Positions 1-15,218 of a stretch of 64,000 nucleotides of DNA are shown piece after piece. Below the pieces are notes generated by a model. The model was given only the letters and a program-made list of their open reading frames with translations, did not search any database and was not told the origin of the DNA. Source of the stretch: Hymenobacter sp. (GTDB lineage Bacteria; Bacteroidota; Bacteroidia; Cytophagales; Hymenobacteraceae); NCBI RefSeq assembly GCF_035709525.1, contig NZ_DASTEP010000124.1:12851-76850 (forward strand), read 5' to 3'. Both the position numbers and the translations under genes were made by a program. Within the stretch, counting starts at the first letter, position 1. The number at the start of each line of letters is the position of its first letter.

Positions 1-863
1 CGCCAGCGCACGCCGTGATAGGCGCGGAACACGGCCGATTTCTCGGCCAGCGCCGCCTCATCGAAGCGCACCACCGAAAAGGCGTGCTGCGCGAAGTAGT
101 CTTTGGGGAAAGCGTAGGGCAGGCCCCAGCGCTCGGGCTTGCGGTTGGCGGGCAAAAAGGCCGTGCCAAACATCCAATCCCAGAAAGCGAATTTGGTCGA
201 GAAGTTGGCGTAGTACACCTCTTCGTGGTCGGCGTGGTGCCAGAGGTGCATTTCGGGGCCGTTGATAACGTATTGCAGCTTACCCGATTTCACATCGATG
301 TTGGCGTGAATGTACATGCCCCACACGGCATCAATCAGCGCCTTGATGGGCACTACTATCGGGTTGGCCCCCAGCAGAATAATGGGCGCAAACTCGATGG
401 TTTGGTTGATGATAATCTCGACGATGTGCGAGCGCGAGCCAGCCAGCCAGTCCACGTGCTTGCCCGAGTGGTGCGCCTCGTGGGTGCGCCAGAAGAAGGC
501 GCTGCTGTGCTGAAAGCGGTGAAACCAGTAGATATAAAAATCGTGCGTTATCACGAAAAACGCTACCTGCGCCGCCACCGGCCAGCTACTCACCACGTGA
601 AAGCGCGCCCCAAAGTGCGCGGCCAGCGGCGCGATGATGAACCCGAAAATCAGGATTTGCAGGAAATAGCTCTGCACCAGCGTGTACCAAAAGAGGTCTA
701 CGAACAGCCCTTCGCGGAAAAACGGCAGCCCCTTGCGGTACGGAAACTTGCGCTCCAGCACCAGCAACACCGCCACCGCCAGCAGCAGGATGGGCGTGGT
801 TATCATCGTGGTACGGCCCACCGCGTCGAGGCTATGGTAAAACGTGCTTATCGTATCGAGCAT
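1..863 (-). CDS. Sterol desaturase / fatty acid hydroxylase family membrane protein (3' end runs off the window)
   Basis: Manual translation from ATG at 863 (MLDTISTFYHSLDAVGRTTMITTPILL...), absent from the ORF track because no stop lies in the window. Contains the His boxes YWFHRFQH, HEAHH and HLWHH of the di-iron membrane hydroxylase family, plus hydrophobic segments. Confidence 0.85.
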   Translation of the reverse strand, partial: MLDTISTFYHSLDAVGRTTMITTPILLLAVAVLLVLERKFPYRKGLPFFREGLFVDLFWYTLVQSYFLQILIFGFIIAPLAAHFGARFHVVSSWPVAAQVAFFVITHDFYIYWFHRFQHSSAFFWRTHEAHHSGKHVDWLAGSRSHIVEIIINQTIEFAPIILLGANPIVVPIKALIDAVWGMYIHANIDVKSGKLQYVINGPEMHLWHHADHEEVYYANFSTKFAFWDWMFGTAFLPANRKPERWGLPYAFPKDYFAQHAFSVVRFDEAALAEKSAVFRAYHGVRW

Positions 864-963
864 AGGGTATTCGATAATGTAGTAGCTGTGCCCCTAACTG
901 CTGGCGCGGGGCGAATGTTCGCCTGGGCGCAAAAGGAACAGGATTATTACTGGTTAAAAATAC

Positions 964-1068
964 GAATGTCATGCTGAGCGCAGCGAAGCATCTCGCGTGG
1001 CACAGTAAATCCTAACGTTAGGGTTACTGCGCCACGCGAGATGCTTCGCTGCGCTCAGCATGACATTC
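964..1068. repeat. Long palindrome, REP-like family A (GTCATGCTGAGCGCAGCGAAGCATCTC ... GAGATGCTTCGCTGCGCTCAGCATGAC)
   Basis: Near-perfect inverted repeat read directly; the loop is itself palindromic (CCTAACGTTAGG). Confidence 0.9.
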
Positions 1069-1090
1069 GCGGACTGAAAGTCCGCGCTAC
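1068..1090. repeat. Single hairpin unit of REP-like family B (GCGGACTGAAAGTCCGCGCTAC)
   Basis: Identical to the right half of the element at 41800-41862; abuts the NeuB stop codon. Confidence 0.75.
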
Positions 1091-1974
1091 TAGGCGGCCG
1101 TTACCTCGCGGCGCAGGCGACGCAGGGGCTCTTTCTCACTCTCGTACACCACTTTCACGCCGTCGCCGAGGCCGGCTTCGGTGTCGCGGATGTCGCGCAC
1201 AAGCTTGGCCATGCCACCGGGCTCTACGCTGGCGGCGTGGTCCGAGCCCCACATGGCGCGGTCGAGGGTGAAGTGGCGCTCTACGAACGTGGCGCCCAGG
1301 GCTACCGCCGTAACGGTGGTGCTGAGGCCGGTTTCGTGGCCCGAGTAGCCGATGGGCGTGCCGGGGAACTGTTGTTCCAGTGTTGAAATCATACGCAGGT
1401 TCAGCTCCTGGGGCGGGCAGGGGTAGGCCGACGTGCTGTGCGCAATCATCAGGTTATCAAGGCCTACGTAGGCTACGGCGTCCGTGATTTCCTGCTGGGT
1501 GCTCATGCCGGTGCTCAGCATGAGGGGGCGGCCGGTAGCGCGCACGCGGTCGAGCAGGGGCTTGTCGGTGAGCGAAGCGGAGGCCATTTTGTAGAGCACG
1601 GGCTGGAATTGCTCCATGAAATCGACCGAGGGCTCATCCCAGCACGAGGCAAACCAGTCGATGCCGCGGGCTTTGCAGTAGTCGTCGATGGCGGTGTACT
1701 CTTCGAGGCCAAACTCGGTTTTGCGCTTGTAGTCGATGTAGCTCATGCGGCCCCAGGGGGTGTCGCGCATTTTTTCCCACTGGTCTTTGGGCACGCACAG
1801 CTCGGGGGTGCGCTTCTGAAATTTTACCGCATCGCAGCCAGCGGTCACGGCCGCGTCGATGAGTTGCTTGGCAATGTCGAGCGAGCCGTTGTGGTTGATG
1901 CCGATTTCGGCAATGATGTAACACGGCTGGCCGGGGCCAATGGCGCGGTTTTTCTTGATTTGAACGACTGACAT
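1090..1974 (-). CDS. neuB: N-acetylneuraminate-synthase-family (NeuB) PEP-dependent ulosonate synthase, short form lacking the C-terminal antifreeze-like domain
   Basis: Motifs IAEIGINHNG, DAVKFQ, YKMAS, LSTGMS, HSTSAYP, GYSGHE, ERHFTLDR. At 294 aa it ends right after the TIM barrel. Confidence 0.92.
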   Translation of the reverse strand: MSVVQIKKNRAIGPGQPCYIIAEIGINHNGSLDIAKQLIDAAVTAGCDAVKFQKRTPELCVPKDQWEKMRDTPWGRMSYIDYKRKTEFGLEEYTAIDDYCKARGIDWFASCWDEPSVDFMEQFQPVLYKMASASLTDKPLLDRVRATGRPLMLSTGMSTQQEITDAVAYVGLDNLMIAHSTSAYPCPPQELNLRMISTLEQQFPGTPIGYSGHETGLSTTVTAVALGATFVERHFTLDRAMWGSDHAASVEPGGMAKLVRDIRDTEAGLGDGVKVVYESEKEPLRRLRREVTAA

Positions 1975-1979
1975 AAGTT

Positions 1980-2180
1980 GTAAGCTATTAGCTTTCAGCT
2001 GTTGGCTGCTAGCTATGTCCTATTCCGTAGGGGAATCGAACGGGTGAGAAAAGAAGCGAAAGTTAGCGCAATGACGCGCGCGGGGAAGTTTTATTTTAAT
2101 CTGTCAGCCAGTTTTATGCATCCGCACTTGCATTGCCAAGGGCAAGCTAACAGCCAGCAGATAGAAGCGAGTAGCTAACG
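1980..2180. repeat. Intergenic element with imperfect terminal inverted repeats (GCTGTTGGCTGCTAGCT ... AGCTAACAGCCAGCAG)
   Basis: Imperfect inverted ends flank a more AT-rich core between kdsC-like and neuB; boundaries approximate. Confidence 0.45.
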
Positions 2181-2183
2181 CTG

Positions 2184-2711
2184 CTACTCCGAGCCGCGAT
2201 TGGGTACCGGCGCGCCGCCCTTGTGGCTGATAATGAGCTCGGCTAATTCGCGAAACGCGCCCTGCCCGCCGAAGGCCTGGCACTGGTAATCGGCCGCCTC
2301 GCGGGCAAAAACCGTGGCATCGCCGGGGCAGGCCGCCAACCCCACGAGGCCCAGAATAGCCACGTCGTTGGTATCGTCGCCGATGAAGGCTACTTCCTCG
2401 GCCGTGAGGCTCAGGCGGGTCAGAATCTCGGCCAGCAGCGGCGCTTTGTCCTTGATACCCAGGTGCAACTCATTGATTTTTAGCTTTTCGGCGCGCTTCA
2501 CCACCGAGGGCGAGCGCTCGCCGGTCACGATGCCCGTGTCCACGCCCACGGCGCGCAGGCGCTCCACGCCCATGCCATCGCGGATGTTGAAGCGCTTGAG
2601 CACCTCGCCGCTTTCGCCGTAGTACACGCCGCCATCGGTGAGGACGCCGTCGCAGTCGGTGAGCAAGAGTTTGATGCGGCGGGCTTTAGCAGCTAAGTCA
2701 GCGTGCTTCAT
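2184..2711 (-). CDS. KdsC/YrbI-type HAD phosphatase (Kdo-8-P / Kdn-9-P phosphatase family)
   Basis: LLLTDCDGVLTDG, FNIRDGMG, IVTGERS, FIGDDTND and GGQGAFRE motifs. Confidence 0.9.
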   Translation of the reverse strand: MKHADLAAKARRIKLLLTDCDGVLTDGGVYYGESGEVLKRFNIRDGMGVERLRAVGVDTGIVTGERSPSVVKRAEKLKINELHLGIKDKAPLLAEILTRLSLTAEEVAFIGDDTNDVAILGLVGLAACPGDATVFAREAADYQCQAFGGQGAFRELAELIISHKGGAPVPNRGSE

Positions 2712-2765
2712 AAAAGATTGGTGCGGGAAATAAAATCTAAATTACTACCCGGCGGCGGTAGCGCC

Positions 2766-2837
2766 GTTGCGCGGACTTTGTAGTCCGCGTGCGTACGCAA
2801 GCAGCCAACCGTACGCGGACTACAAAGTCCGCGCAAC
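2766..2837. repeat. REP-like family B: two inverted hairpin units (GCGGACTTTGTAGTCCGC ... GCGGACTACAAAGTCCGC)
   Basis: Nested palindrome read directly; ends at the SDR stop codon. Confidence 0.85.
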
Positions 2838-3643
2838 TAAATCGCCGTCCAGCCGCCATCCACCACGAGGTTGGCCCCCGTCATGTAAGCCGAAGCATCC
2901 GAGGCCAGAAACACCACGGCGCCTTGGTAATCGGTAGGCGCGGCCATGCGCCCCAGGGGCGTTTTGGCGCTGTACTGCTTCACAAAAAAGGCATCCTGGC
3001 TGTTCTCCACGCCGCCCGGCGAGAGCGTGTTTACGCGCACGCCCTTGGCGCCCCAGTAAGCCGCTAGGTAGCGCGTGAAATTGACTACCGCGCCCTTGGT
3101 AGTGGGATAAGACGGTGATTTATAGAACGTCTGCTCACCGGCCTCGTTGCGGTAGATGCTCTGGTCGGGCCCAACGATGCCGTAGGTACTCGCCACGTTG
3201 ATGATGGAACCACGGCCTTGCTCGGCCATCGGCGTGCCGAATACCTGCGCGGCCAGAAACAGCCCCGTCACGTTCACCTCCAGCACCTGCCGGAAGGTCG
3301 CCACCGGGAAGTTCTCAAACTTGCTGAGGTCGGCCGCCAGGGCCGGGTTCTCGAACATGTCGTTGATAGCCGCATTGTTAACCAGCACGTCGATGTGCCC
3401 GAAATTCTTGATAATTTCATCACGGGCGGCGGCCAGCGACTCGGGCGAGGTTACGTCCACGGCCAGCGGCAGGTGAATGGCGCCCGGCAGCGCGGCGGCC
3501 ACTTCGCGAGCCTTGTTGAGGTGCAGGTCGGCTACTACCACGTGGGCACCGGCCAGGGCCAGCGCCTCGCAGTGCTTTTGGCCGATGAGGCCGCACGCGC
3601 CGGTTACGATGGCGGTTTTGTTGGTTAGGTCGAAGAAATTCAT
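2837..3643 (-). CDS. SDR family oxidoreductase (resembles the SDRs found in nonulosonate clusters)
   Basis: TGACGLIG Rossmann motif, NNAA, YPTTK catalytic YxxxK, RVNTLSPGG and C-terminal VDGGWTA. Confidence 0.92.
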   Translation of the reverse strand: MNFFDLTNKTAIVTGACGLIGQKHCEALALAGAHVVVADLHLNKAREVAAALPGAIHLPLAVDVTSPESLAAARDEIIKNFGHIDVLVNNAAINDMFENPALAADLSKFENFPVATFRQVLEVNVTGLFLAAQVFGTPMAEQGRGSIINVASTYGIVGPDQSIYRNEAGEQTFYKSPSYPTTKGAVVNFTRYLAAYWGAKGVRVNTLSPGGVENSQDAFFVKQYSAKTPLGRMAAPTDYQGAVVFLASDASAYMTGANLVVDGGWTAI

Positions 3644-3654
3644 GTAGGATTTTA

Positions 3655-3840
3655 CCTAACGCAGCGCCTCACCCCTAGCCCCTCTCCGAAAAGGAGAGGG
3701 GGACTAGCCTCTAGTTCTTAGCTCTAGAAGCTACTGTGGGCCAGCTACCTGCGTAAGCAATAAATTAACTAGAGCTAAAACTAAAAGCTAGTTCCCCTCT
3801 CCTTTTCGGAGAGGGGCTAGGGGTGAGACGCTGCGTTAGG
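3655..3840. repeat. Long palindrome, family C (CCTAACGCAGCG..CACCCCTAGCCCCTCTCCGAAAAGGAGAGGGG ... CCCCTCTCCTTTTCGGAGAGGGGCTAGGGGTGAG..CGCTGCGTTAGG)
   Basis: Inverted arms of about 50 nt, each containing an internal hairpin. Confidence 0.85.
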
Positions 3841-3850
3841 CGAGCTAAGC

Positions 3851-5152
3851 CTACTTCGCCTTCACCGGCGCGGCGTTCGTCACCTTGCGGAATACGGCTT
3901 CCACCGGCTCGCCTTCCAGGCGGCTAGCCACGTCGCCCTTCTCGATAGCGTCTTTGAGCAGCGGCAGCACGGCGCGGTAGGCGTCCAACGTTTTAGCCAC
4001 GTCCTCGTCGGTGTGCGAGAAGCTCATGTTGTGGAAACCGCCCCACAGGATGCCCTGCTTGAACAGCTCCTGCTGCACGAAAGCCTTTACTTCCAGCGGG
4101 TTGCCAGCGCTGGCGTCGAAGGTCACGATGCTGCGGCAGTCGTAGCCGTAGCACTTGGTGTAGCTGCTGAGGCCGAGCTCGGCAGCGATTTGGTTGTAGC
4201 CTTCCTTCAGCTTGTTGCCCTGGCTGGCCAAAAACGCGGGCACGTTTTTCTCGCGCATCTCGCTGATGGTGGCGATGGTAGCCGCCAGGCTGAGCGCTTC
4301 ACCGCCGAAGGTGGTGAAGAAGAATACGTCCTGCTCAAACAGTTGCAGCACGTCCTTGCGGCCGGTGAGTAGGGCGATAGGCATCCCGTTGGCGCAAGCT
4401 TTCGAGTACACCGCGAGGTCGGGCGTGATGCCGAAATACTCCTGCGCGCCGCCAATAGCGATGCGGAAGCCCGTCCACATCTCGTCGAAAATCAGCAGCG
4501 TGCCGTTCTCTTTGCAGAGGCGGGCTACCTCGTGCAGGAAGTTGTCCTTGGGCGCGTCGAAAATGAATGGTTCCAGGATAACGCAGGCCACGTCGGGCGT
4601 CAGCACAGCCTTGAACGAGTCGAGGTTGTTGTACTCGAAGGCCGCTACCAAGTCCTTGCTTTCCTGCGGGATACCCTTGTCGCGGCTCGTGGTGCCGATG
4701 TACCAATCGTGCCATCCGTGGTAGCCGCAGCACAGCACGTCCTTGCGGCCGGTGAAGGCGCGGCTCACGCGCACGGCCGCCGAGCACACGTCAGCCCCGG
4801 TTTTGGAGATGCGGATGCTCTCGGCGTTGGGGATAATCTCGTGAATCAGCTCGGCTACCTCTACTTCCAGCTCGTGCATCATCGAAAACGTGATGCCGTC
4901 TTCGAGCTGCGCCTTGATGGCTTCATCCACGCGGGGGTAGGCGTAGCCCAGGCTCAGCGGGCCGATACCCATCTGGTAGTCAATGTACTCGTTGCCATCG
5001 ACGTCCCACACGTGGGCACCTTTGCCGCGCTTCACGTACTTGGGGCTCGCACCTTTGGTGTACTGGCCCGGCCCCTTGGCGAGGGTTTGGGTCACGGGCG
5101 TCATGATTTTCTGCGCCCGGGCGTAGAGGTCGTCGGATTTGGGGAAATTCAT
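3851..5152 (-). CDS. Class III PLP-dependent aminotransferase (glutamate-1-semialdehyde aminomutase-like)
   Basis: WDVDGNEYIDY, GYHGWHDWY, FDEMWTGFR and YSKACANG (PLP lysine). Start set at ATG 5152; the longer ORF-track start lies inside a repeat. Confidence 0.9.
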   Translation of the reverse strand: MNFPKSDDLYARAQKIMTPVTQTLAKGPGQYTKGASPKYVKRGKGAHVWDVDGNEYIDYQMGIGPLSLGYAYPRVDEAIKAQLEDGITFSMMHELEVEVAELIHEIIPNAESIRISKTGADVCSAAVRVSRAFTGRKDVLCCGYHGWHDWYIGTTSRDKGIPQESKDLVAAFEYNNLDSFKAVLTPDVACVILEPFIFDAPKDNFLHEVARLCKENGTLLIFDEMWTGFRIAIGGAQEYFGITPDLAVYSKACANGMPIALLTGRKDVLQLFEQDVFFFTTFGGEALSLAATIATISEMREKNVPAFLASQGNKLKEGYNQIAAELGLSSYTKCYGYDCRSIVTFDASAGNPLEVKAFVQQELFKQGILWGGFHNMSFSHTDEDVAKTLDAYRAVLPLLKDAIEKGDVASRLEGEPVEAVFRKVTNAAPVKAK

Positions 5153-5193
5153 AAGGATTAGCTGGTTAGCCAGAATGTCAGAAATAAAAACGC

Positions 5194-5289
5194 CTGTCAT
5201 GCTGAGCTTGCGAAGCATCTCATCACGATAGAATCGTCGGGTTCAACAATCCGGACGTGATAGGATGCCTCGCAAGCTCAGTATGACAG
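5194..5289. repeat. REP-like family A palindrome
   Basis: CTGTCATGCTGAGCTTGCGAAGCATC ... GATGCCTCGCAAGCTCAGTATGACAG. Confidence 0.85.
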
Positions 5290-5302
5290 ACGGGGAGCCA
5301 TA

Positions 5303-6256
5303 TTACTCGGCAAACTCGTTTTCAACCACTTCCGTTTTCTCGTTGAAAACGTGCTGCTTATCACCCAGCTTCTCGCCGATGCGGCGGGCAATGTGCTGGC
5401 CGGTGAAACCTTCGTACTCCAGCACCTCGCTAAGGCGGCCGGGCTTGTACCACTTTTCCTTGAGGGCCAGCGGCAGCACCTTGGCGGTCAGCTCATTCTC
5501 CAGCAGCAGCTCGGCCACGATGGAGTAGAGGCCGCCGGTCTGGAAGTGGTCTTCCAGCGTCACCACGAGGCCGCCGGTTTTCACCACGTTCAGCACGGCT
5601 GCCGAGTCGAGGGGCTTGAGGCTGCGCAGGTTCACGAGGCCTACCGAGTAGCCGGCTTCGGTCAGCAAGTCCTTAGCTACCAGGGCTTGCCCGAACAGCA
5701 TGCCGTAGGTGAGGATGGTGACGTCGTGGCCTTCGCTCACGATTTCAGCCTTGCCGATTTCAAACGGCGCGTGCTGGTAGGTGGCGGGGCGGGTGTTGAC
5801 GCGCACGTAGGCCGGGCTGGGCGAGGCCCAGATGGCGGGCAGCATGGCCAACATGTCCTGCTCATCGGCGGCGGCGAAAACCGTCATGCCGGGGATGCCG
5901 CGCATCAGCGAGATATCCTCAATGGCCTGGTGGGTCGGCCCGTTGCCATCCGACAGAAAGCCGGGCACGAACGAGCTGATTTTCACCGGCAAGTTGGCAA
6001 TGCCCACGTCGGTGCGGATAAACTCGAACGCCCGCAGCGTGAGGAAGGTAGCCAGCGCGTGCACCACCGGCACGCGCCCGCGCAGGGCCAGGCCGGCCGC
6101 CGCGCCAATCATGGTTTGCTCGGTGATGCCGGTGTCGATGAAGCGCAGCCCGAGCGGCCCCGGCAGGTTGCGGATGAGGGCGCGGTTTTCGGCCGTCATC
6201 ACGATGAGGCGCTCGTCGGCGAGGGCCGTTTCGTGGATTAATTGCTCGTAATTCAT
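5303..6256 (-). CDS. Transketolase, C-terminal (pyrimidine-binding + C-terminal) subunit
   Basis: RFIDTGITEQTMIGAAAGLA, DGNGPTHQAIEDI and LRSLKPLD. Start MNYEQ at 6256. Confidence 0.9.
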   Translation of the reverse strand: MNYEQLIHETALADERLIVMTAENRALIRNLPGPLGLRFIDTGITEQTMIGAAAGLALRGRVPVVHALATFLTLRAFEFIRTDVGIANLPVKISSFVPGFLSDGNGPTHQAIEDISLMRGIPGMTVFAAADEQDMLAMLPAIWASPSPAYVRVNTRPATYQHAPFEIGKAEIVSEGHDVTILTYGMLFGQALVAKDLLTEAGYSVGLVNLRSLKPLDSAAVLNVVKTGGLVVTLEDHFQTGGLYSIVAELLLENELTAKVLPLALKEKWYKPGRLSEVLEYEGFTGQHIARRIGEKLGDKQHVFNEKTEVVENEFAE

Positions 6257-6268
6257 ATCGGTTAAAAT

Positions 6269-6381
6269 TGTCATGCTGAGCGCAGCGCAGCGGAGTCGGA
6301 GCATCTCTGCCGGTGAACTAACTCCTAACGCTAGCAGCGAAGCGGTAGAGATGCTTCGGCTTCGCTGCGCTCAGCATGACA
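6269..6381. repeat. REP-like family A palindrome
   Basis: TGTCATGCTGAGCGCAGC ... GCTGCGCTCAGCATGACA; its loop shares CTCCTAACGCTAGCA with the copy at 7253. Confidence 0.88.
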
Positions 6382-6386
6382 GTTAG

Positions 6387-7244
6387 TTATCTAACAGTGA
6401 GGGTTTCGCTGGTGAGCGTGGTAGCTTCCTGGCTGTGCAGCTCTTTGAGCAGCTCCGTCACCTCGTCGCTGCTGAAGTTGCAGAACCAGCGGTCGGCGCG
6501 GCGCTCGATGCTGGGCAGGCCCTTGCCGCGCACCGTGTCGCAGATGATAACCGAGGGCTTTTCCTGGCTGAACGGCAGGGCTGAAAACGCCTCTTCCAGC
6601 GCCACGAAATCGTGGCCGTCGATGCGGCGCACGGCGGCACCGAAAGCCTCAAACTTGGGCGCCAGCGGCTCCAGCGGAATCAGCTCCTCGGTGGCGATGT
6701 TGGCCTGGAAGTGGTTGCGGTCGACCACGAAGGTCAGGTTGTTGAGCTTGTGGGCGCTGGCTACCAGCACGGCTTCCCAGCAGGTACCCTCGTTGAGCTC
6801 ACCGTCGCCGGTTATCACGATGACTTTCTGATTTTGGCCGCGCAGGCGGGCGTCGAGAGCTACGCCCATGGCTACGCTCGGCAGGTGGCCCAGCGAGCCC
6901 GAGTGAAACTCCACGCCCGGCACGTTGCGGTTGGGGTGCCAGTAGATGCTGTCGCTGGTTTTCAAGTGATTATCCAGCCGCTCCTTGGGCATGAAGCCCA
7001 GCTCGGCAAACACCCCGTAGAGCGCCGGCACGTCGTGGCCCTTGCTCAGGAATAGGTAGTCGCGCTCCGAGTCGGTGAGGTTGCCGGGGTGCACGTTGAG
7101 AAAATCGGCGTAGAGGTACACCAGCAGGTCGGCGCAACTCAGCGAGGCGCCCGTGAAGCAGCCGCCATCGGTGCTGAGGCGCACGATGTGCTCGCGCACG
7201 CGCAGGGCGAGTTCTTTTAGCTCGTTTTGTTTTTCGGAGGTCAT
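6387..7244 (-). CDS. Transketolase, N-terminal (ThDP-binding) subunit
   Basis: LSKGH, HSGSLGH and the GDGELNEG...N ThDP-binding motif. Confidence 0.9.
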   Translation of the reverse strand: MTSEKQNELKELALRVREHIVRLSTDGGCFTGASLSCADLLVYLYADFLNVHPGNLTDSERDYLFLSKGHDVPALYGVFAELGFMPKERLDNHLKTSDSIYWHPNRNVPGVEFHSGSLGHLPSVAMGVALDARLRGQNQKVIVITGDGELNEGTCWEAVLVASAHKLNNLTFVVDRNHFQANIATEELIPLEPLAPKFEAFGAAVRRIDGHDFVALEEAFSALPFSQEKPSVIICDTVRGKGLPSIERRADRWFCNFSSDEVTELLKELHSQEATTLTSETLTVR

Positions 7245-7252
7245 AAGGGCGG

Positions 7253-7370
7253 TGTCATGCTGAGCGCAGCGCAGCGGAGTCGAAGCATCTCTACTTCAAT
7301 ACTAGCTCCTAACGCTAGCAATGAAGCGATAGAGATGCTTCGGCTTCGCTGCGCTCCGCTCAGCATGACA
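7253..7370. repeat. REP-like family A palindrome
   Basis: Near-duplicate of 6269-6381, including the arm variant GCAGCGCAGCGGAGTCG. Confidence 0.88.
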
Positions 7371-7380
7371 GTTACTTGTT

Positions 7381-8175
7381 TTACAATTGCTTGGTATTGC
7401 CCGCGTCCACCGTTTTGAGTTCGTCCAAGTGGTTGCGGTACCAGTTCACGCCGGCCAGGTCGGCATTCAAGGCGTAAATGTCCGGCCTTTGTTTTAATAA
7501 AGTCAGGATATCGTCCAAACCAAACTCGGGATTAACCGGATAAAGCGCTTCGTACACGGCCTTTATGAAGTCATAATCGGCCGGGTAATCGATGGTGAGG
7601 CGGTGCGACATCGAGTAGTCCAGCCCCGTTTCCCAGGTGATATTAGCCAATCGGAAGCGCTCGGGGTTTTCCCAGAAAAAAGGGGTAGTGTGCTCGCGCT
7701 CCAAGGGGCGGCGGGCCTCGCGCCAGGCCGTTTCGAGCGCCGCGAAGGTCATTACCTCCACGTCGTTGCCATCGGGGTAGGTAGCGGGGTGCAGGTTGCT
7801 GACAAAGTCGTACTGGCCCTGCGTTTCCTCATAATAACCCAGCACCTTATCGATAATGGCCGGGTCGATGAGCGGGCAATCACTCGGGATTTTCACTACT
7901 GCCTCCGTTTCGCCAAAGTGCCGCGCCGCCTGGTAGTGGCGGTCGAGCAAGTCGAGCGCCGAGCCCCGAAATACTTCAATACCGTGCTGCGCGCACAGCG
8001 CGGCCAGCGGGTCGTCGCTTTGCTCATCGGTGGTGATGACGGCCACGCGGCCCGCCCGGGTGGCCAGTTGCACCCGCTCTACCTGGCGCACCAATAGCGG
8101 CTTGCCGCAGAGGTCGAGACTTACTTTATCGGGAAAGCGCGAGGAGCCGCGCCGGGCCTGAATTAGCGTGAGCAT
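7381..8175 (-). CDS. SpsF-type cytidylyltransferase (CMP-ulosonate synthetase-like)
   Basis: IQARRGSSRFPDKV, VFRGS..DLLDR, SDCPLIDP, YPDGNDVE, REHTTPF and RLTIDYPADY. Confidence 0.88.
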   Translation of the reverse strand: MLTLIQARRGSSRFPDKVSLDLCGKPLLVRQVERVQLATRAGRVAVITTDEQSDDPLAALCAQHGIEVFRGSALDLLDRHYQAARHFGETEAVVKIPSDCPLIDPAIIDKVLGYYEETQGQYDFVSNLHPATYPDGNDVEVMTFAALETAWREARRPLEREHTTPFFWENPERFRLANITWETGLDYSMSHRLTIDYPADYDFIKAVYEALYPVNPEFGLDDILTLLKQRPDIYALNADLAGVNWYRNHLDELKTVDAGNTKQL

Positions 8176-8246
8176 AAGCTAGAGTACAAAACGTAACGCT
8201 GGCGGCACAAAATGTAATATGAACGGCCCTAGAGTTCCCGGCGTGG

Positions 8247-9314
8247 CTAGTGCGTGGCGGGGGCCAGTTCGGCTGGGGCGGGCACCTCGGCGGCCGGCCG
8301 GTACTGGCGCAAAAACTCCGCGCCGGAGCCCGCAAACTGCCCGTATTGCCGGCACAGGTCGGCAATGCGGCGGGCGCTGGTGCCGCCATTCTGAATGGGC
8401 AGCTTGCGCTTGAGGTCGTCGACATCGAAGTAGGAATGCACGGGGATGCCAAGCGCCAAACCCACGTAAGCTACAGTACTATACTGCGTTATCAGCTCTA
8501 CGCAGTTGGCTATCATTTCCTCGGTGTTGCCGCTGGTGAAAATGCGCGTGCCAGGCGGGGCCCATTTTTCGACCTCGGCGGTGGCGCGGGCCATGTTTTC
8601 GTTGGGGTGAAACTTGAAGAACATGGGCCGCCCGGCCGCGATGCGGGTAGCGTGCCGGATAAACTTTTTGCGGTTATCGGGCCGGTAGGTTTCGCGCATG
8701 TCGGTGGTGGCCACCAGCACGTAGCCGCGGTGCGGAAAGCTATTATTGCGCAGCTTCTCGATGTTGTCGAAATTCGGAATGCCCGTCACGATGAGCTTAT
8801 CCTTGTCGACCCCGATTTTCTCGAAGTGCTCGGCGTAGCCCGGCGAGGCCACGCAGTACACGTCGCAGATGTTGTTCATCCCGTTCAGCGCGGTGCTGAT
8901 GGTGAGGATGGGAAAGTTGGTAAACTTCTTCACCAGGCGCGCCCACAGGTTGAGCGGGTCGGTCATGCCCTCCTGCACGAACACCGACTTGGTTTTCTTG
9001 AGCAGGTTCCAGGGCACGATGATGTCGGAGCAGCACACGATGAGGTCGTACTCGTGGCCGAATACGCGGTTCTCGAAGTCATTGCGCAGGTTGTGGGCGG
9101 CCAGGTACTTATCGCCCTTTTCCTTGATGTGGCCCTGCACGATGGTTTGCTTCAGCCCGCCGGTGCGCAGCAAAAACTGGTAGAAGCCCCGCATCCAGCC
9201 ATCGTAGTAAAGCTGGCTGAAATAGGGCTCGTACTCATCCTCAAGCAGCTGCGCGATGCCGTGCATCTGCGTAGTCTGGTTGGGCGAGCCGATTAAATAA
9301 AGCGCCTTTTTCAC
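8247..9314 (-). CDS. Hypothetical protein, probable GT-B fold glycosyltransferase (candidate ulosonate transferase)
   Basis: GTG start. Contains VQEG, VTGIPNFD, FKFHPNE and STVAYVGLALGIP, recalling CMP-sugar and teichoic-type transferases. Family not confirmed. Confidence 0.6.
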   Translation of the reverse strand: MKKALYLIGSPNQTTQMHGIAQLLEDEYEPYFSQLYYDGWMRGFYQFLLRTGGLKQTIVQGHIKEKGDKYLAAHNLRNDFENRVFGHEYDLIVCCSDIIVPWNLLKKTKSVFVQEGMTDPLNLWARLVKKFTNFPILTISTALNGMNNICDVYCVASPGYAEHFEKIGVDKDKLIVTGIPNFDNIEKLRNNSFPHRGYVLVATTDMRETYRPDNRKKFIRHATRIAAGRPMFFKFHPNENMARATAEVEKWAPPGTRIFTSGNTEEMIANCVELITQYSTVAYVGLALGIPVHSYFDVDDLKRKLPIQNGGTSARRIADLCRQYGQFAGSGAEFLRQYRPAAEVPAPAELAPATH

Positions 9315-9385
9315 AAAAAATACGTGTAAAAATCACGCAAAAATACACTAGCGCCGCCTTGCGGGCGGGGCGCGAAGCTATCGGG

Positions 9386-9856: not shown

Positions 9857-10081
9857 AAGGGGCGAGGTACTAAGCAGAAAGAACTGAACGGAAGCGGCAC
9901 CAGGGCGGCGGACGGGCGGCAGCCAGCGGACCACCGCCCGAAGCTACAAAGGTCGGGCTAGATGACGGTACCAGCGGCCTGACATTTTACCGGCTGGCCG
10001 GTTTAGGGCGCGGGCCTGGCCGCTGGCCCGGCCATCCTGCCTTTCTTGCAAGGTATTTTAGGCTGCGACGCGGCCCGCCCC

Positions 10082-11329
10082 ATGCCCACCGACGCCCCTA
10101 CCCCTGCTTCATCAGTAGCTACCGCCGCCGTGCCGGTGTTTCTCGACCTCGAGCAGCGGCGCGTGCTGCTGGTGGGCGGCGGGGCCGAGGCCCTGGCCCA
10201 GCTTGGCACCGTGCTGGCCGCCCACCCCACGGCCCGCGTCACGGTGGTGGCCCCTACCCCGATGCCCGAGCTCGTGGCCCTGGCCCAGCGCCACCCGCAG
10301 GTGCGGGTGCTGGCGCGCGCCTTCGAGCCGGCCGACCTGGCCGGGCACGACCTGGTGCTGGTGGCTACCCCCGATGCCGGGCTGCTCGGCCGCGTGCGGG
10401 CCGGGGCCGCCGCCCGCCGCCTGCACGCCGTGGCGGCCTTCGGCCCTGCCGAAGAAGCCGAGGCCACCGCCTACTGGCGGCGCGTGGCCACGTGGGCGCT
10501 GCTGGCCTTCGCGGGATTTTTGATGCTCACCATCTTGTCGTACTACTTCACCTGGCAGCAGGCGTGGGCAGGGGTGCGCGGCGCGGGCACGTTCTACACG
10601 TTCGTGGCCGTGGGCTTCGTGGCCCAGCTGATAGATGGCATGCTGGGCATGGGCTACGGCATCGTGTCGGCCATCAGCCTGATGACGCTGGGGCTGCCCC
10701 CGGCCTCGGTGAGCGCCAGCATTCACACGGCCGAGATGTTTGCCAGCGGCGCGTCGGGCTACCACCACTACCGCTTCGGCAACGTCAACAAGAAGCTATT
10801 CAGGGTGCTGGTGCTGCCCGGCGTGGCCGGCTCAGTGGCCGGGGCGCTGCTGCTCGCGCGGCTGGGCGAGGCGCACGTGGCCTACCTCAAGCCGGTGCTG
10901 GCCGTGTACCTGCTCGTGCTGGGCGCGCGCATCATCAGCAAGGCTCTTAAAAAGCAGCCGCAGCAGCGCCGCAAGGTGAAAAATGCCGGCTGGCTGGCCA
11001 GCGCGGGCGGCTTTCTCGACTCGTTTGGCGGGGGCGGCTGGGGGCCGCTGGTCACGAGCACGCTCATTGCCAACGGCCGCACGCCGAGCTACGTCATCGG
11101 CACGGTGAGCCTGGTAGAGTTTTTCGTGACGTTCGCCAGCGCGGTCACATTTTTTTCGGTGCTGGGCTTCAAGCACTGGCAAATCGTGCTGGGCCTCATC
11201 GGCGGGGGCGTGGCGGCCGCGCCCATTGCCGCCCGCCTGGCCGGCCGCCTACCCACCCGCTGGATGTTCGTGGGCGTGGGTGCCATGGTTATTTTCTGGA
11301 GCCTCTGGACGCTGCGCAAGCTGCTATAA
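10082..11329 (+). CDS. TSUP (TauE/SafE sulfite exporter) transporter fused to an N-terminal siroheme-synthase-like NAD-binding domain
   Basis: N-terminal PVFLDLEQRRVLLVGGG; C-terminal GFVAQLIDGMLGMGYG and DSFGGGGWGP repeats. Confidence 0.85.
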   Translation: MPTDAPTPASSVATAAVPVFLDLEQRRVLLVGGGAEALAQLGTVLAAHPTARVTVVAPTPMPELVALAQRHPQVRVLARAFEPADLAGHDLVLVATPDAGLLGRVRAGAAARRLHAVAAFGPAEEAEATAYWRRVATWALLAFAGFLMLTILSYYFTWQQAWAGVRGAGTFYTFVAVGFVAQLIDGMLGMGYGIVSAISLMTLGLPPASVSASIHTAEMFASGASGYHHYRFGNVNKKLFRVLVLPGVAGSVAGALLLARLGEAHVAYLKPVLAVYLLVLGARIISKALKKQPQQRRKVKNAGWLASAGGFLDSFGGGGWGPLVTSTLIANGRTPSYVIGTVSLVEFFVTFASAVTFFSVLGFKHWQIVLGLIGGGVAAAPIAARLAGRLPTRWMFVGVGAMVIFWSLWTLRKLL

Positions 11330-11444
11330 GTCGCCCCCACCCGCTGGGCCTGCCCAGAGGCGCTTCTTAAGCTGCCTTTCAGCCGGTGCCTCCAAGGGTG
11401 CTTTTGGGGTTCGGCCATTGCGGGCGGCGGGCAGACGAACTTCC

Positions 11445-11640
11445 GTGCACGAACAATTTCAACTTCATAAAGTGCAATAATAACTCAGCACCACCCGCCT
11501 ATGATTTAATTGTTACTAACCGATGATTAACATTATTTTGTCTATAATAAATTGTAATTAATTTACTAATTGCGCCAATTATATTCTTTTTAAAAACCTA
11601 AGTAATATCTTAGAAGTATAAACCAATAAGCTGAACCGTT
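11445..11640 (+). promoter_or_regulatory. AT-rich upstream region of the polysaccharide lyase locus
   Basis: Abrupt AT-rich stretch in GC-rich context, with a short palindrome CTAAG-TAATAT-CTTAG at 11598-11613. Confidence 0.45.
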
Positions 11641-11736
11641 GCGCACTACCCGGCTACTTGCTACCGGCCAGGCGGCGCTTACTACCAACGCTCTTTTGCG
11701 CGGGCTGCTTTTTTATCCATCTTACTACCGCTAGTT

Positions 11737-11940
11737 ATGCACACCACCACTACCTGCACCCGCCAGCTGCCCGATACGGCCGCCTGGCTGCTGGCCGCCG
11801 GGCTGTTGCTGGGCCTACTCGGCCTGGGCAGCCTGGCCCGTCCGGCGCTCGCGCCCGCCCAAGGGCAAGCCCGCTCGCGCGCCGCCGCGCCGCCCGCCGC
11901 GCGGGTAGTGCCCGCGTCGTGGCGGGCAGCGGCGCCGTAG
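11737..11940 (+). CDS. Small putative membrane peptide
   Basis: ATG downstream of the AT-rich region; one hydrophobic segment (WLLAAGLLLGLLGLGSLA). Coding status uncertain. Confidence 0.35.
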   Translation: MHTTTTCTRQLPDTAAWLLAAGLLLGLLGLGSLARPALAPAQGQARSRAAAPPAARVVPASWRAAAP

Positions 11941-11981
11941 CCCACCGCCCGAGTTTGTTATAAGTAGCTATCCTATACCCT

Positions 11982-14942
11982 GTGAATAAATTAGTTGTTA
12001 TCCTGCTCGCGCTGTGCGGCGCGGGGCAGCTCCGCGCCCAGTCGGGTGCCTGGCTGCCCGATAGTGCCCGCCCGGCGTATCCGCGCACCTTGCTCGCAGC
12101 CCCGGCCCTGCCCCAGGTGCAAGCCTCGCTGGCCGAGCCCGGCCGGCGCGCCATCTACCAGAGCCTGTGGGCCGACGTGCAAAGCCCGCCGCCCACCGAC
12201 AACACCTCGGCCAGCGGGCGGCGGGCGCGGGCCACCTGGGCCAAAAACGCGGCCTTCGCAGTGCTGCTAAACCGGCAGCCGGCCGGCGCGGGCCTGGCCC
12301 CGCTGCCCGCCGAAACGCACGATGCCCTGGCCGCCAGCGCCCGCAGCCTGCTCGAAAGCCTGAACACCGAAGTAGAGCCCTTCGCCACCTGGACTGGCAC
12401 CATGCCCTACACCGAGTGGCAGTGGCGCTCGAAGGAGCTGATTGACTACCTGATAGCCTACGACCTGCTGCGCGGCGCGGGTGAAAGCGCGGCCGCGCTA
12501 GCGGCCGGCCAGGCCCGGCTCCAGGTTTTTGCGGGCAACCTCTACCGGCAGTCGACCACGCCGCTGATGGGTATCACGTTTTACAGCGCCGTCAAAAACA
12601 ACCACACCCTGATGACGGCCGCCGCCCTGGGCATGGCCGCCGTGGTGCTGAACGACGCGACCAGCACCGACGCCAACCAACAGCCCGCCCGCTGGGCCGG
12701 CGCGGGGCTGCACACCATCGACAACGTGCTGTGGCGCGACGCCCAGCGGCAGTCTGACTCGACGCAGGTGGCGGGCTACGCCGAGGGGCCGTACTACTGC
12801 AAGTACGCGCTGCTCAACTGCTTACCGTATTTCCGGGCGATGGGTAATTTTCTGCCCGATGGCCGCCTGCCTTACACTTTCGGCGGCAGCACGCGGAGCA
12901 TCCGCAACCCCTATTTCGACCCCAAATACGACCGGCTATATGAGTGGCTGACGGCCATCCGGCTGCCCGACGGGCGGCTGCCGGCGCTGGAAGACTCCTA
13001 CGTAGACATGGGCATGCCCGAGCTGGCCCTCACCGGCAAGCCGCAGTATGCCAAGCCGATGTACTACAGTAAAATAACGGGCACGGGCATGGCCTCCGAC
13101 CTGGCGCAGCTGCGCGACGCCACCGTGGACATGCGCGCCGCCTGGCTGGCCGCCGCCGTGGCCCCCACCGCGCCCGCGCACCCGGCCCTGACGGTGCTGC
13201 CGGGCAGCGGCAACTTGATTTTTCGGTCGGGCGCCGACTCGGCCGCCACCTACCTGCACGTGTACGGCCGCGGCGGCACAGCCCAAAGCAACAGCGGCGG
13301 CCACAACCAGGGCGACGCCAGCAGCTTCATTTTGCACGCGCAGGGGCAGCTGCTGGCCCTCGACCCCGGCTACCTCAGCTACGGCCGCCGGGCCGAGGTG
13401 GGCGCGGCCACCAGCCACAACCTAGTGCTGGTAGATGGCGCGGGCCCCGCCCTGGGCGCGCCCGGCGCTACCAACTCGGCCCCCGCCGCCATCGAGCGCA
13501 CCTTCCAAACGCCGCAGCTCAGCTACGGCGAGGTAACGACGAGCTACCAGCAGGCCCGCCTCACGCGCAAGACGCTGTTTGTGCGCAACACCTACTACCT
13601 GCTGGCCGATGCCGTGAGCGCCGCCGCACCCCGCACCTACACCTGGCAGCTGCACGGCTACGGCCTGGCGGGCGGCACGGCCGCCACTGGCACCTTCGCG
13701 GGCAATCTGGCTGGGCACGAGGGCACCTGGCAAAAAAACGGCGTGCGCCTGCTGGCCCACGTGGCGGGCACCGGCACGGCCGCCACCTATGCCACCGCTA
13801 CCAACCCCCACGAAACTACCTATAACACCGCCGAAAACCACACCACGCTGCTGGTGCAGCAAAGCGGCACAACCCAAACGCAGTTTTTGAGCGCGCTCTA
13901 CCCCTACGCTGCCCAGCCGCCGCAGGTGGCCACCACCAGCCAGGCCACCACGGCCGCGCTGGCCACCGCCGCCGAGGGCTTCGTGGATGTCGCCTTCGCG
14001 CAGGCCGATACCGTGCTGACTGCCGACGCCAGCGGCCGGCTGCCGCAGGCCGTGCAGGCCGATGGGCTGCTCAATTTTTATTCGGCCGACGCCAACGGCA
14101 AGTTCGCCCAGCTTTTTGTGCAGGCGGGCACCACGCTGCAAGTCGGCCCCGCGGCCGTGCTGACGTCCGCACGCCGGGCCGATATAAGCTGGCAGCGCCT
14201 CAGCCCCGGCCACTACGCCGGCTACGCCAGCCGCGCCACCACGCTGCTGCTGGCGCTGGGCAGCGCGCCCAGCGCCGTGCGCGGCGCGGGCGTGGCCAGC
14301 TACGCCTACGATGCCGGCTTACAGCAACTGCGCGTAGTACTAAGCCAGGCTTCGGACTTTGAGGTAGCGCTGCCGGCCGCCGGCAGCGGCACCGCACCGC
14401 TGCCGGTGGTGCTCACCGATTTTGCGGGCCAGCGCCAGAGCGCGGCCGTGGCGCTGAGCTGGCACACGGCGTCGGAGCAGCACAATGCGGGCTTCGAGGT
14501 GCAGCGCCGGACGGCGGAAGCGGCCGATTTTACTACCCTTGGCTTTGTGGTGGGCGCGGGCACGGCCAGCCGCAACACGGGCTACGCCTTCCGCGACGCG
14601 GCGGCCCCAGCCGGGCTGGTGTACTACCGCCTGCGGCAGCTCGACCGTGATAGCACCGCTACCTACTCGCCCGTGGTGGCCGTGGCGGGTACCACCCCGG
14701 CCGGGGCCGCCGAGGCCAGCATGCGGGTGTTTCCGCAGCCCGCCCGCGACTGGCTGCGGGTGCAGATGGCCGGCTCCGCGCCGCCCACCACGCTGCAGCT
14801 GCTCGATAACCTGGGCCGCGTGGTGCGCCAGCAACTTTGCCAAACCGAAACGCAGCTGGATGTGCGCGGGCTACCCGCCGGCCTCTACTACCTGGTGGCC
14901 AGCGGCACCGCTGGGCGTCAAAAAGTGGTCATCGAACCTTAA
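11982..14942 (+). CDS. Heparinase II/III-like polysaccharide lyase with T9SS C-terminal sorting domain
   Basis: Signal peptide; NNH, EGPYY, GHNQGD..SF, DPG and SHN.V.VDG motifs; PLPVVLTDF Ig-like module; VFPQPA...GLYYL sorting tail. Confidence 0.82.
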   Translation: MNKLVVILLALCGAGQLRAQSGAWLPDSARPAYPRTLLAAPALPQVQASLAEPGRRAIYQSLWADVQSPPPTDNTSASGRRARATWAKNAAFAVLLNRQPAGAGLAPLPAETHDALAASARSLLESLNTEVEPFATWTGTMPYTEWQWRSKELIDYLIAYDLLRGAGESAAALAAGQARLQVFAGNLYRQSTTPLMGITFYSAVKNNHTLMTAAALGMAAVVLNDATSTDANQQPARWAGAGLHTIDNVLWRDAQRQSDSTQVAGYAEGPYYCKYALLNCLPYFRAMGNFLPDGRLPYTFGGSTRSIRNPYFDPKYDRLYEWLTAIRLPDGRLPALEDSYVDMGMPELALTGKPQYAKPMYYSKITGTGMASDLAQLRDATVDMRAAWLAAAVAPTAPAHPALTVLPGSGNLIFRSGADSAATYLHVYGRGGTAQSNSGGHNQGDASSFILHAQGQLLALDPGYLSYGRRAEVGAATSHNLVLVDGAGPALGAPGATNSAPAAIERTFQTPQLSYGEVTTSYQQARLTRKTLFVRNTYYLLADAVSAAAPRTYTWQLHGYGLAGGTAATGTFAGNLAGHEGTWQKNGVRLLAHVAGTGTAATYATATNPHETTYNTAENHTTLLVQQSGTTQTQFLSALYPYAAQPPQVATTSQATTAALATAAEGFVDVAFAQADTVLTADASGRLPQAVQADGLLNFYSADANGKFAQLFVQAGTTLQVGPAAVLTSARRADISWQRLSPGHYAGYASRATTLLLALGSAPSAVRGAGVASYAYDAGLQQLRVVLSQASDFEVALPAAGSGTAPLPVVLTDFAGQRQSAAVALSWHTASEQHNAGFEVQRRTAEAADFTTLGFVVGAGTASRNTGYAFRDAAAPAGLVYYRLRQLDRDSTATYSPVVAVAGTTPAGAAEASMRVFPQPARDWLRVQMAGSAPPTTLQLLDNLGRVVRQQLCQTETQLDVRGLPAGLYYLVASGTAGRQKVVIEP

Positions 14943-15218
14943 CGCACTGGCTCGCGAGCGGGCATTACGGGCCGCCCTGGCAGTAGTGCCCGCTTCGGTG
15001 TGGCTAGCTACTGCCAGGGCATTGGGTCAGCCGCAGCTATAGCCTGGCTCCGGTTTCGGCAGAGATACCCGTTTGGCTGGCTGCGCCGGCATATTTTTAA
15101 CCGCAGGCCGCACTGTTGGGGCTACTACTGGTGCTCGGCAATTGGGGTTTGCCCTGCGCCTCGTACTTACGCGGCGCGCTACCGGCTTCTGGCTAGCAAC
15201 CCATGCGCCCTGAAACGA

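Follow-up and report, generated by a model that had tools for sequence, protein, structure and literature searches.

What is made by a run of nine same-strand genes that brings together a NeuB-type synthase, a split transketolase, a phosphatase, an aminotransferase and a membrane hydroxylase? The genes open a stretch of 64,000 nucleotides from Hymenobacter sp. (assembly GCF_035709525.1, contig NZ_DASTEP010000124.1, positions 12,851 to 76,850 of the forward strand), which we call the window and to which all coordinates refer unless a locus is named. A sequence-only reading of this DNA had proposed that the cluster builds an unusual amino-ulosonic acid without nucleotide sugars and attaches it, possibly to a lipid. 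We arrive at a related answer, to which we give a probability of about 0.5. The operon-like unit would make an amino-ulosonic acid activated with cytidine monophosphate (CMP), and this sugar would be transferred to a membrane lipid. We infer every step of this route from protein families, a structure model and gene neighborhoods.

Gene content and conservation of the cluster

Open reading frame (ORF) calls and Pfam/NCBIfam scans place all nine genes in the same orientation on the minus strand between positions 1 and 9314. In the order of transcription they are:

8247..9314, minus strand: first gene, a protein of 355 amino acids with a GT-B fold; matches Epimerase_2 only below the cut-off; predicted transferase
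7381..8175, minus strand: SpsF-type cytidylyltransferase (PF02348 CTP_transf_3, 2.8e-26); predicted CMP-ulosonate synthetase
6387..7244, minus strand: N-terminal, thiamine diphosphate (ThDP)-binding subunit of a split transketolase (PF00456 Transketolase_N, 2.1e-25; NF004559, 203 bits)
5303..6256, minus strand: pyrimidine-binding and C-terminal subunit of the split transketolase (PF02779 Transket_pyr, PF02780 Transketolase_C)
3851..5152, minus strand: class-III aminotransferase of the glutamate-1-semialdehyde (GSA) aminomutase-like branch (PF00202 Aminotran_3, 2.6e-44)
2837..3643, minus strand: classical short-chain dehydrogenase/reductase (SDR) (PF13561, 2.6e-48)
2184..2711, minus strand: KdsC-type HAD phosphatase (TIGR01670 YrbI subfamily, 146.6 bits against a cut-off of 107)
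1090..1974, minus strand: short NeuB of 294 amino acids, without the C-terminal SAF/AFP domain (PF03102, 1.5e-77)
1..863, minus strand, with its 3' end beyond the window: membrane di-iron hydroxylase of the FA_hydroxylase family (PF04116, 5.4e-27)

The sequence-only reading had named these nine families, and its description is correct apart from two gene starts. The longest ORFs of the C-terminal transketolase subunit (to 6304) and the aminotransferase (to 5218) run into intergenic repeat elements, and comparison with orthologues puts the true starts at about 6256 (aligned to locus L001) and about 5152. The hydroxylase starts at 863 or, alternatively, at 806. The translations contain the DxDG motif of the HAD phosphatase, the TGxxxGxG and YxxxK motifs of the SDR, the GDG...N motif of transketolase and the HxxHH boxes of the hydroxylase. 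Also visible are the context of the lysine that binds pyridoxal phosphate in the aminotransferase and the metal-binding and catalytic motifs GHETG and ERHFTLD in NeuB.

To determine how widely the cluster occurs, we searched GTDB, with each species represented by a single genome, for relatives of the first protein, using an alignment of that protein as the query, and examined the best 80 loci. At least 585 species-level loci encode a relative of this protein. The best 80 are from Hymenobacter, Chitinophagaceae, Saprospiraceae, Lewinellaceae, Cyclobacteriaceae, Cytophagales, Ohtaekwangia and Mucilaginibacter, and from metagenome-assembled genomes (MAGs) of Flavobacteriales. Gene order was then assessed by tblastn of the window proteins against these loci, counting the 53 Bacteroidota loci with enough sequence. 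A fixed order on one strand emerges: the GT-B protein, cytidylyltransferase, both transketolase subunits (N-terminal, then C-terminal), aminotransferase, SDR, phosphatase, NeuB, hydroxylase and, as a tenth gene, a small multidrug resistance (SMR)-type transporter, which in the window would sit to the left of position 1.

All ten genes are colinear in 37 of the 53 loci, and another 12 lack the phosphatase gene alone, which supports the view that the cluster is conserved as a real unit. Variants without the phosphatase are listed under L018-L025, L031, L033, L045, L062, L064 and L075. The remaining four loci (L046, L035, L051 and L077) include one without the hydroxylase, one without both the hydroxylase and the SMR protein, and two Flavobacteriales MAG contigs that end after the N-terminal transketolase gene, possibly because of misassembly. 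Loci with the conserved order span Hymenobacteraceae, Chitinophagaceae, Saprospiraceae, Cyclobacteriaceae, Sphingobacteriaceae and others. Between families, the proteins have 50-77% amino acid identity, with the aminotransferase conserved best. Such synteny counts are far beyond chance, and we therefore rejected a chance juxtaposition of the genes.

Outside Hymenobacter, the median intergenic gap is about 1.5 base pairs, and these short gaps and overlaps constitute an operon-like arrangement. The gap in Hymenobacter is about 111 base pairs because palindromic elements have been inserted between the genes (described below). The flanking genes vary by lineage, and clustering of flanking ORFs returned lineage-specific neighbors only; in Chitinophagaceae, for example, these include a GDSL lipase and an Omp85 protein. 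Thus, the ten genes form a self-contained unit. We also considered a horizontally transferred island. The G+C content of the window is about 0.62 and its closest protein matches are to Hymenobacter species, whereas the cluster lies at 0.59-0.62, marginally under the window mean. Given this near-average composition and protein identities that follow taxonomy, we rejected this explanation.

Established routes to neuraminic (Neu), legionaminic (Leg) and pseudaminic (Pse) acids rely on enzymes that the sequence-only reading had noted as missing here, and our scans extend that absence. Pfam and NCBIfam searches, which covered the cluster and ten genes in its neighborhood, revealed no NeuC, PseB, LegB, DegT aminotransferase or acetyltransferase in the cluster or in the next 25 kb rightward. 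Directly past the left end of the cluster, orthologous loci have none of these either; the SMR gene lies there, followed by unrelated genes. Full-text literature searches returned no paper on this cluster, with the search on the amino sugar Kdo8N (see below) swamped by papers on kDNA.

The predicted route to an activated amino-ulosonic acid

The core of the cluster consists of NeuB, the KdsC-type phosphatase and the SpsF-type cytidylyltransferase. The PF03102 domain of NeuB spans residues 38-274, it does not reach the cut-off of the NeuB or the PseI equivalog model, and the protein matches the structures 1vli (3.2e-44) and 6ncs, a protein of 290 amino acids (2e-36). The best model for the phosphatase is the one for 2-keto-3-deoxynononic acid (Kdn) 9-phosphate phosphatase (NF058599), at 159.6 bits and thus below the cut-off of 180, followed by KdsC (NF007019) at 147.8 bits against a cut-off of 208. 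The cytidylyltransferase belongs to the CTP_transf_3 fold family (PF02348, 93.1 bits against a cut-off of 22.6), and thus to the KdsB/NeuA/PseF/SpsF superfamily whose members produce CMP-Kdo and CMP-nonulosonates, and matches the structure 6oew (2.9e-39), but it passes no equivalog model (KdsB, 34.7-53.4 bits; PseF, 22.5 bits).

A NeuB gene beside a KdsC-type phosphatase gene is the layout of the Bacteroides route through Kdn 9-phosphate, and implies a phosphorylated aldose as substrate. Together the three families provide a well-founded argument for a CMP-activated ulosonic acid made from such an aldose. These family matches support what the sequence-only reading had suggested for the core, namely that NeuB would add phosphoenolpyruvate (PEP), the HAD protein would remove phosphate and the SpsF homolog would make the CMP-sugar. 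In Bacillus subtilis, the synthesis of legionaminic acid does not require spsF, whereas the transfer of this sugar does, and SpsF has been placed last in the synthesis of CMP-Leg (PMC7439481). The predicted role of the window protein as a CMP-ulosonate synthetase agrees with these genetic results.

Two further proteins are candidates for introducing an amine. The aminotransferase scores 392 bits with NF004856 (cut-off, 486) and 251 bits with GntE, and its matches among solved structures are GSA aminomutases (6e-56), aminopentol aminotransferases (1.7e-41) and aminoglycoside C-6' aminotransferases (8.8e-37). We take several of these relatives (GSA aminomutase, the aminoglycoside C-6' transaminases and GntE) to act on aldehydes, which would fit amination at the primary alcohol exposed by the phosphatase. 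The SDR comes closest to the models for gluconate 5-dehydrogenase, PRK09186 and KduD but reaches none of their cut-offs, and its structural matches are generic polyol and sugar-acid SDRs. From these families, we predict that the aminotransferase aminates an oxidized ulosonic acid and that the SDR is its partner, oxidizing the alcohol to a carbonyl. The two genes are kept together in clusters L122 and L167, which lack transketolase.

A parallel is offered by the synthesis of 8-amino-8-deoxy-Kdo (Kdo8N), where Kdo is 3-deoxy-manno-octulosonic acid. In three metagenome contigs with a G+C content of 0.47 (L087-L089), the gene order is a HpnL/MprF-like transmembrane protein, a relative of the first gene of the window, a cytidylyltransferase, an iron-dependent alcohol dehydrogenase and a DegT aminotransferase. 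The aminotransferase matches the solved KdnA structure at 9.4e-81 (next match, 3.8e-47), and the dehydrogenase matches KdnB at a modest 1.3e-15. In L087 the module lies at about 9890-14962, with genes for PagL and an acyl-AMP ligase nearby. This module looks, from its family matches, like one that puts a Kdo8N-type sugar on a lipid. The family of the first gene is therefore coupled elsewhere to a known module that converts an ulosonate into an amino-ulosonate. The window has no KdnB-type dehydrogenase and no DegT-type KdnA, but instead a classical SDR and an Aminotran_3 protein. By analogy, this pair looks like a non-homologous counterpart of KdnB/KdnA in the same place in the cluster.

These observations suggest the following order of events. 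The short NeuB would join PEP to a phosphorylated aldose, and the KdsC-type phosphatase would then remove the terminal phosphate. Once the ulosonic acid is free, the SDR would oxidize one of its hydroxyls, most probably the newly exposed primary alcohol, and the class-III aminotransferase would turn the resulting carbonyl into an amine, as KdnB and KdnA do for Kdo8N. The SpsF-type cytidylyltransferase would make the CMP-sugar, and the GT-B enzyme would move the sugar onto a hydroxyl of a membrane lipid. That hydroxyl is probably introduced by the hydroxylase, which resembles OlsE, and the lipid may be an aminolipid of the ornithine type. Finally, the SMR protein, or a HpnL/MprF-type flippase in other lineages, would carry the product across the inner membrane.

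By analogy with aminoshikimate clusters, in which transketolases also occur, we assign the split transketolase an accessory role in this scheme, probably as the source of the aldose phosphate. Its membership in the transketolase family is clear, with ThDP-binding and pyrimidine-binding plus C-terminal functions on separate subunits. The solved structure closest to the C-terminal subunit is the split transketolase of Carboxydothermus (6yaj, 1.1e-40). The N-terminus of this subunit failed to align to canonical transketolase, and this is the segment relevant to the phosphate-binding residues. The two proteins are 60-79% conserved across loci. The sequence-only reading had given transketolase a central part in supplying or remodeling the sugar phosphate, which is doubtful because both genes are missing from L122 and L167.

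The predicted route shares parts with several known pathways. In the Kdn 9-phosphate route of Bacteroides thetaiotaomicron, which leads from mannose 6-phosphate to Kdn, the NeuB-type synthase BT1714 and the HAD phosphatase BT1713 act before CMP activation. The similarities are a NeuB synthase encoded beside a tetrameric KdsC-type HAD protein and a start from a sugar phosphate rather than a nucleotide sugar. However, the window phosphatase falls under the cut-off of the BT1713 equivalog, and the cluster adds transketolase, SDR, aminotransferase, hydroxylase, SMR and GT-B proteins, with a product that is predicted to be aminated. Kdo8N synthesis by KdnB and KdnA of Shewanella oneidensis (PDB 5k8c and 5k8b) is similar in that a finished ulosonic acid is oxidized, transaminated and activated with CMP. 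It differs in the enzyme families used, and in that the window cluster encodes a NeuB to make its own ulosonic acid in place of Kdo.

The canonical pathways for N-acetylneuraminic acid (Neu5Ac), Leg and Pse, including the sps genes of B. subtilis (PMC7439481), have in common with the cluster a NeuB/SpsE-type condensation and an SpsF-type cytidylyltransferase. Unlike these pathways, the window cluster has no nucleoside diphosphate (NDP)-sugar dehydratase, DegT aminotransferase, N-acetyltransferase or bona fide NeuC/PseG hydrolase, and it carries a phosphatase and a NeuB that lacks the SAF domain. Judged by its enzyme families, the cluster is outside both the canonical Neu/Leg/Pse pathways, whose defining enzymes we looked for and found absent, and the KdnA/KdnB system, whose families differ. 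The sequence-only reading had concluded that the enzyme set matches no ulosonate pathway. This is right only in part: the set forms a mosaic of the Kdn 9-phosphate route and the amination logic of Kdo8N.

The GT-B protein, its possible acceptor and alternative explanations

The sole Pfam match of the first protein is to Epimerase_2 (E=0.0037; 16.6 bits against a cut-off of 30.6), and there is no match to NCBIfam models or, by sequence, to PDB entries. An initial AlphaFold model built from 18 sequences, with a predicted local distance difference test score (pLDDT) of 62.8, was too poor to use. An AlphaFold2 model built from 59 sequences has a confident GT-B fold (pLDDT 90.8). The best PDB match of the family profile is the TagF-like polymerase Cps3D (E=0.022), through the motif LIT(D/Q)YS; PDB epimerases are matched at E of about 1.3, and by sequence the family falls outside Epimerase_2. 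Glyphos_transf (PF04464) is detected at E=0.009 in a fused homolog, and faint precomputed matches to it exist in others. The family is small, with 635 representatives among 1.84 billion proteins. Residue Q114 is invariant, and at least 90% of the sequences share E115, G116, K234, H236, P237 and E239. The 50 Foldseek matches listed for the model include no sialyltransferase or beta-Kdo transferase family. We conclude that the first gene belongs to a small, new GT-B family of which no member has been described.

Comparison with the beta-Kdo transferases KpsS/KpsC, bacterial sialyltransferases and TagF-like polymerases points to a common GT-B fold; a conserved K-x-H-P motif, presumably comparable, opens the C-terminal domain, and the LITxYS motif is shared with Cps3D. 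A cytidine-nucleotide donor, as used by the CMP-dependent members of this group, is implied by the adjacent cytidylyltransferase gene, and some homologs are encoded beside ABC-2 exporters in the way that KpsS/KpsC are encoded beside KpsMT. In contrast to these likenesses, there is no significant sequence match to any of these families, no Pfam Capsule_synth hit and an E value for Glyphos_transf of about 0.01.

From the fold of the structure model by itself, a transferase and a NeuC-like hydrolase cannot be told apart, but gene context distinguishes them. Three representative proteins of the family are fusions of the glycosyltransferase domain with LPG_synthase_TM, a flippase-type domain of MprF, and one is fused to an FA_desaturase-like domain. 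Homologs encoded without a cytidylyltransferase or NeuB adjoin ABC-2 exporters, fusions of fatty acyl-AMP ligase (FAAL), acyl carrier protein (ACP) and oxoamine synthase, and lipid genes of the polyketide synthase (PKS) type. A phosphopantetheinyl transferase and an EptA-like protein of the sulfatase family are neighbors of the same homologs. An epimerase that supplies an aldose has no role in lipid settings without NeuB, and for this reason we favor a lipid glycosyltransferase. The first gene is thus predicted, from context rather than sequence, to encode a transferase that places the activated ulosonic acid on a lipid. The lipid acceptor that the sequence-only reading had raised as a possibility is supported by the flippase-domain fusions and adjacency and by the lipid-cluster contexts, whereas its transferase assignment draws support from context and is opposed by the nearest folds.

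Family members without sugar-activation genes are found in lipid clusters in L100, L136, L153, L159 and many other loci. These clusters include a FAAL-ACP-oxoamine synthase fusion of 1140 amino acids, synthase genes of the polyunsaturated fatty acid (PUFA)/PKS type and a radical SAM/SPASM protein. They may represent a second uncharacterized glycolipid system.

The membrane proteins of the unit also point to a lipid. Full-length orthologs of the hydroxylase have OlsE as their sole NCBIfam match, at 98-105 bits and far below the cut-off of 475, and nearly every cluster has the gene, within classic Bacteroidota and beyond. We predict from this resemblance that the enzyme hydroxylates the lipid acceptor. 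In L165 (7139-9953) and L128 (8163-10975), genes for OlsB-like and OlsA-like acyltransferases lie divergently upstream of a HpnL-like gene, which suggests, for that one lineage, a hydroxylated amino acid lipid as acceptor. In L128, L163 and L165, none of which has the SMR gene, the cluster is directly adjoined by a distinct gene of the LPG_synthase_TM/HpnL-like type. Its product matches HpnL (TIGR03476) and the flippase-like domain TIGR00374 with scores below the cut-offs. This alternation between lineages suggests that the SMR and HpnL-type proteins both translocate the product. The SMR protein, observed in the orthologous loci, is a member of its family (PF00893 Multi_Drug_Res) with an LLEVCW motif and a conserved membrane-embedded Glu13, and it reaches 50.9 bits with the SugE model (cut-off, 126).

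An amine head group made in the cytoplasm and a dedicated translocator are likewise combined in MprF (lysyl-phosphatidylglycerol), in the glycosylation of hopanoids involving HpnL and in ArnE/ArnF (SMR-like; undecaprenyl phosphate-4-amino-4-deoxyarabinose), and the hydroxylase resembles the OlsE of hydroxylated ornithine lipids. The cluster differs from these systems in that all scores are below cut-offs and that SMR and HpnL-like proteins swap between lineages. To our knowledge, an ulosonic acid head group has not been reported on flippase-coupled lipids of this kind.

Several observations weigh against the proposed transfer of an amino-ulosonic acid to a membrane lipid. The nearest Foldseek neighbors of the GT-B model are UDP-GlcNAc 2-epimerases (6.5e-11; template modeling score 0.5-0.59), with GT4 enzymes next, and the resemblance of the QEG and HP motifs to the D/E-D/E-G and HP motifs of CMP-sugar transferases is a presumed one. 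The phosphatase is absent from the 12 loci noted above, and the hydroxylase or SMR gene is missing from a few clusters. The OlsB/OlsA neighborhood is confined to one lineage, whereas lipopolysaccharide (LPS) is suggested by the heptosyltransferase genes near the cluster in L167 and by the PagL of L087. The SMR protein is SugE/Gdx-like with its Glu13, and could equally export a small cation. Furthermore, the high conservation of the transketolase is poorly explained by a mere supply role, and the enzyme may alternatively be involved in chain extension or amino-diol formation.

The epimerase-like fold is the starting point for one rival explanation, in which the first gene encodes a divergent NeuC/LegG-like 2-epimerase that hydrolyzes an NDP-sugar and supplies the aldose for NeuB. 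The hydroxylase and SMR protein would then be bystanders, and unlinked glycosyltransferases would place the CMP-nonulosonic acid on protein O-glycans or a polysaccharide. NeuC itself is among the best structural neighbors, the naming of UniRef entries echoes the weak Epimerase_2 match, and acidic and histidine residues presumably occupy positions like those of the epimerase catalytic residues. We nevertheless consider this explanation quite unlikely. A KdsC-type phosphatase implies a phosphorylated aldose rather than a product of the NeuC type, the hydroxylase and SMR protein are retained in nearly every cluster, flippase-like membrane domains are fused to members of the family or encoded beside them, and the family occurs, without NeuB, in lipid clusters and in the Kdo8N-type module, where an aldose supplier would have nothing to do.

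If the sugar is indeed transferred by the GT-B protein, LPS could be the target, with the amino-ulosonic acid added to lipid A or the inner core at the cytoplasmic face, much as Kdo8N takes the place of Kdo in Shewanella. The acyl chains of lipid A would then be the substrate of the hydroxylase. In favor of this idea, a KdnA-like module accompanies the GT-B family in L087, where the PagL nearby is a lipid A deacylase. Three heptosyltransferase genes lie directly upstream of the transketolase-less cluster in L167, and LpxB ranked 28th in a Foldseek search, albeit only with the first, low-confidence model. These LPS neighborhoods are, however, lineage-specific and absent from more than 60 Bacteroidota loci. 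In addition, MsbA flips lipid A-core, such that a dedicated SMR or HpnL/MprF-type flippase would be superfluous, and the hydroxylase resembles OlsE rather than known lipid A or Kdo hydroxylases. On balance, modification of LPS seems unlikely.

A third scheme would separate the transketolase, aminotransferase and SDR from the ulosonic acid. Transfer of a two-carbon unit to an aldehyde followed by transamination would yield a 2-amino-1,3-diol (serinol- or sphingoid-like), a combination of transketolase and omega-transaminase that is known as a synthetic route to amino-diols. This moiety would serve as the acceptor, or as part of a head group activated with cytidine diphosphate (CDP) and moved by a TagF-like phosphotransferase. 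The sole near-significant PDB sequence match of the GT-B profile is indeed the TagF-like polymerase with the shared LIT(D/Q)YS motif, weak Glyphos_transf matches are present in homologs, and homologs outside the cluster adjoin oxoamine synthases that make amino-alcohol lipids. However, the aminotransferase and SDR persist in L122 and L167, where there is no transketolase, the phosphatase argues against a phospho-alcohol donor, and the cytidylyltransferase is in the CMP-ulosonate family PF02348 and not in a CDP-alcohol family. We regard this scheme as very unlikely.

A lipid-linked amino-ulosonic acid therefore remains the reading we prefer. A more specific version of it, which we put forward tentatively and with considerable doubt, is that aerobic Bacteroidota and some relatives in the same phylum (GTDB) make an undescribed class of membrane glycolipid. 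This would be a hydroxylated, ornithine-type aminolipid with an amino-ulosonic acid as its cap. The sugar would come from a route that needs no nucleotide sugars and involves transketolase, the new GT-B family would attach it, and an SMR or HpnL-type protein would flip the product.

If the prediction is true, a ten-gene unit in at least 585 species-level genomes, spanning several families of soil, freshwater and plant-associated Bacteroidota, encodes an uncharacterized surface lipid. In addition to the NDP-sugar and Kdo8N routes, there would be a third way of making amino-ulosonic acids, and it would involve a new glycosyltransferase family and possibly a lipid-linked role for an SMR protein. 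Spots recorded as 'unidentified aminolipid or aminoglycolipid' are common in the taxonomic descriptions of these genera, and some of them would be explained by such a product. Being zwitterionic, its head group could influence the charge of the outer membrane, recognition by hosts or phages, and resistance to cationic peptides.

Intergenic repeats and other features of the window

Most intergenic gaps of the cluster are occupied by repeats resembling repetitive extragenic palindromic (REP) sequences or miniature inverted-repeat transposable elements (MITEs), whose core GTCATGCTGAGC...GCTCAGCATGAC recurs in the window. These elements, and a possible promoter box, are located as follows:

963-1069, 5191-5292, 6266-6384 and 7253-7370, no strand assigned: palindromic REP/MITE-like elements, inverted repeats with 86-98% complementarity
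16920-17034 and 30317-30404, also 2766-2837 and 3655-3840, no strand assigned: further REP/MITE-like copies with the shared core motif
9338..9345, minus strand: possible Bacteroidota-type -7 box TATTTTTG, 24 nucleotides upstream of the GTG start of the first gene

In contigs from public sequencing runs, the repeats reach 10-50 times the depth of the flanking genes, and assemblies break at them. The elements are insertions and no functional part of the pathway.

We take TATTTTTG to fit the Bacteroidota -7 consensus TAnnTTTG, and thus to be a putative promoter box. A hairpin followed by a run of T nucleotides at 9339-9321 overlaps it. An Rfam scan of the window returned two tRNAs only, and no riboswitch at the cluster. 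Scans for sigma-70 promoters (5 promoter-like sites against 2.7 +/- 1.6 expected) and terminators (11 against 11.1 expected) were near or at background, with models that are ill-suited to Bacteroidota.

Four other genes in the window have no synteny link to the cluster. They encode a heparinase II/III-like protein with a tail for the type IX secretion system (T9SS; 11982-14942), a second class-III aminotransferase that is unrelated to that of the cluster (18839-20083), a GH3-family protein that resembles acyl-acid amido synthetases (28737-30266) and a transaldolase (30433-31581). Closer to the cluster, at 10046-11329, a membrane protein of the TauE/SafE sulfite-exporter family carries an N-terminal NAD_binding_7 domain like that of siroheme synthase, which is an unusual fusion.

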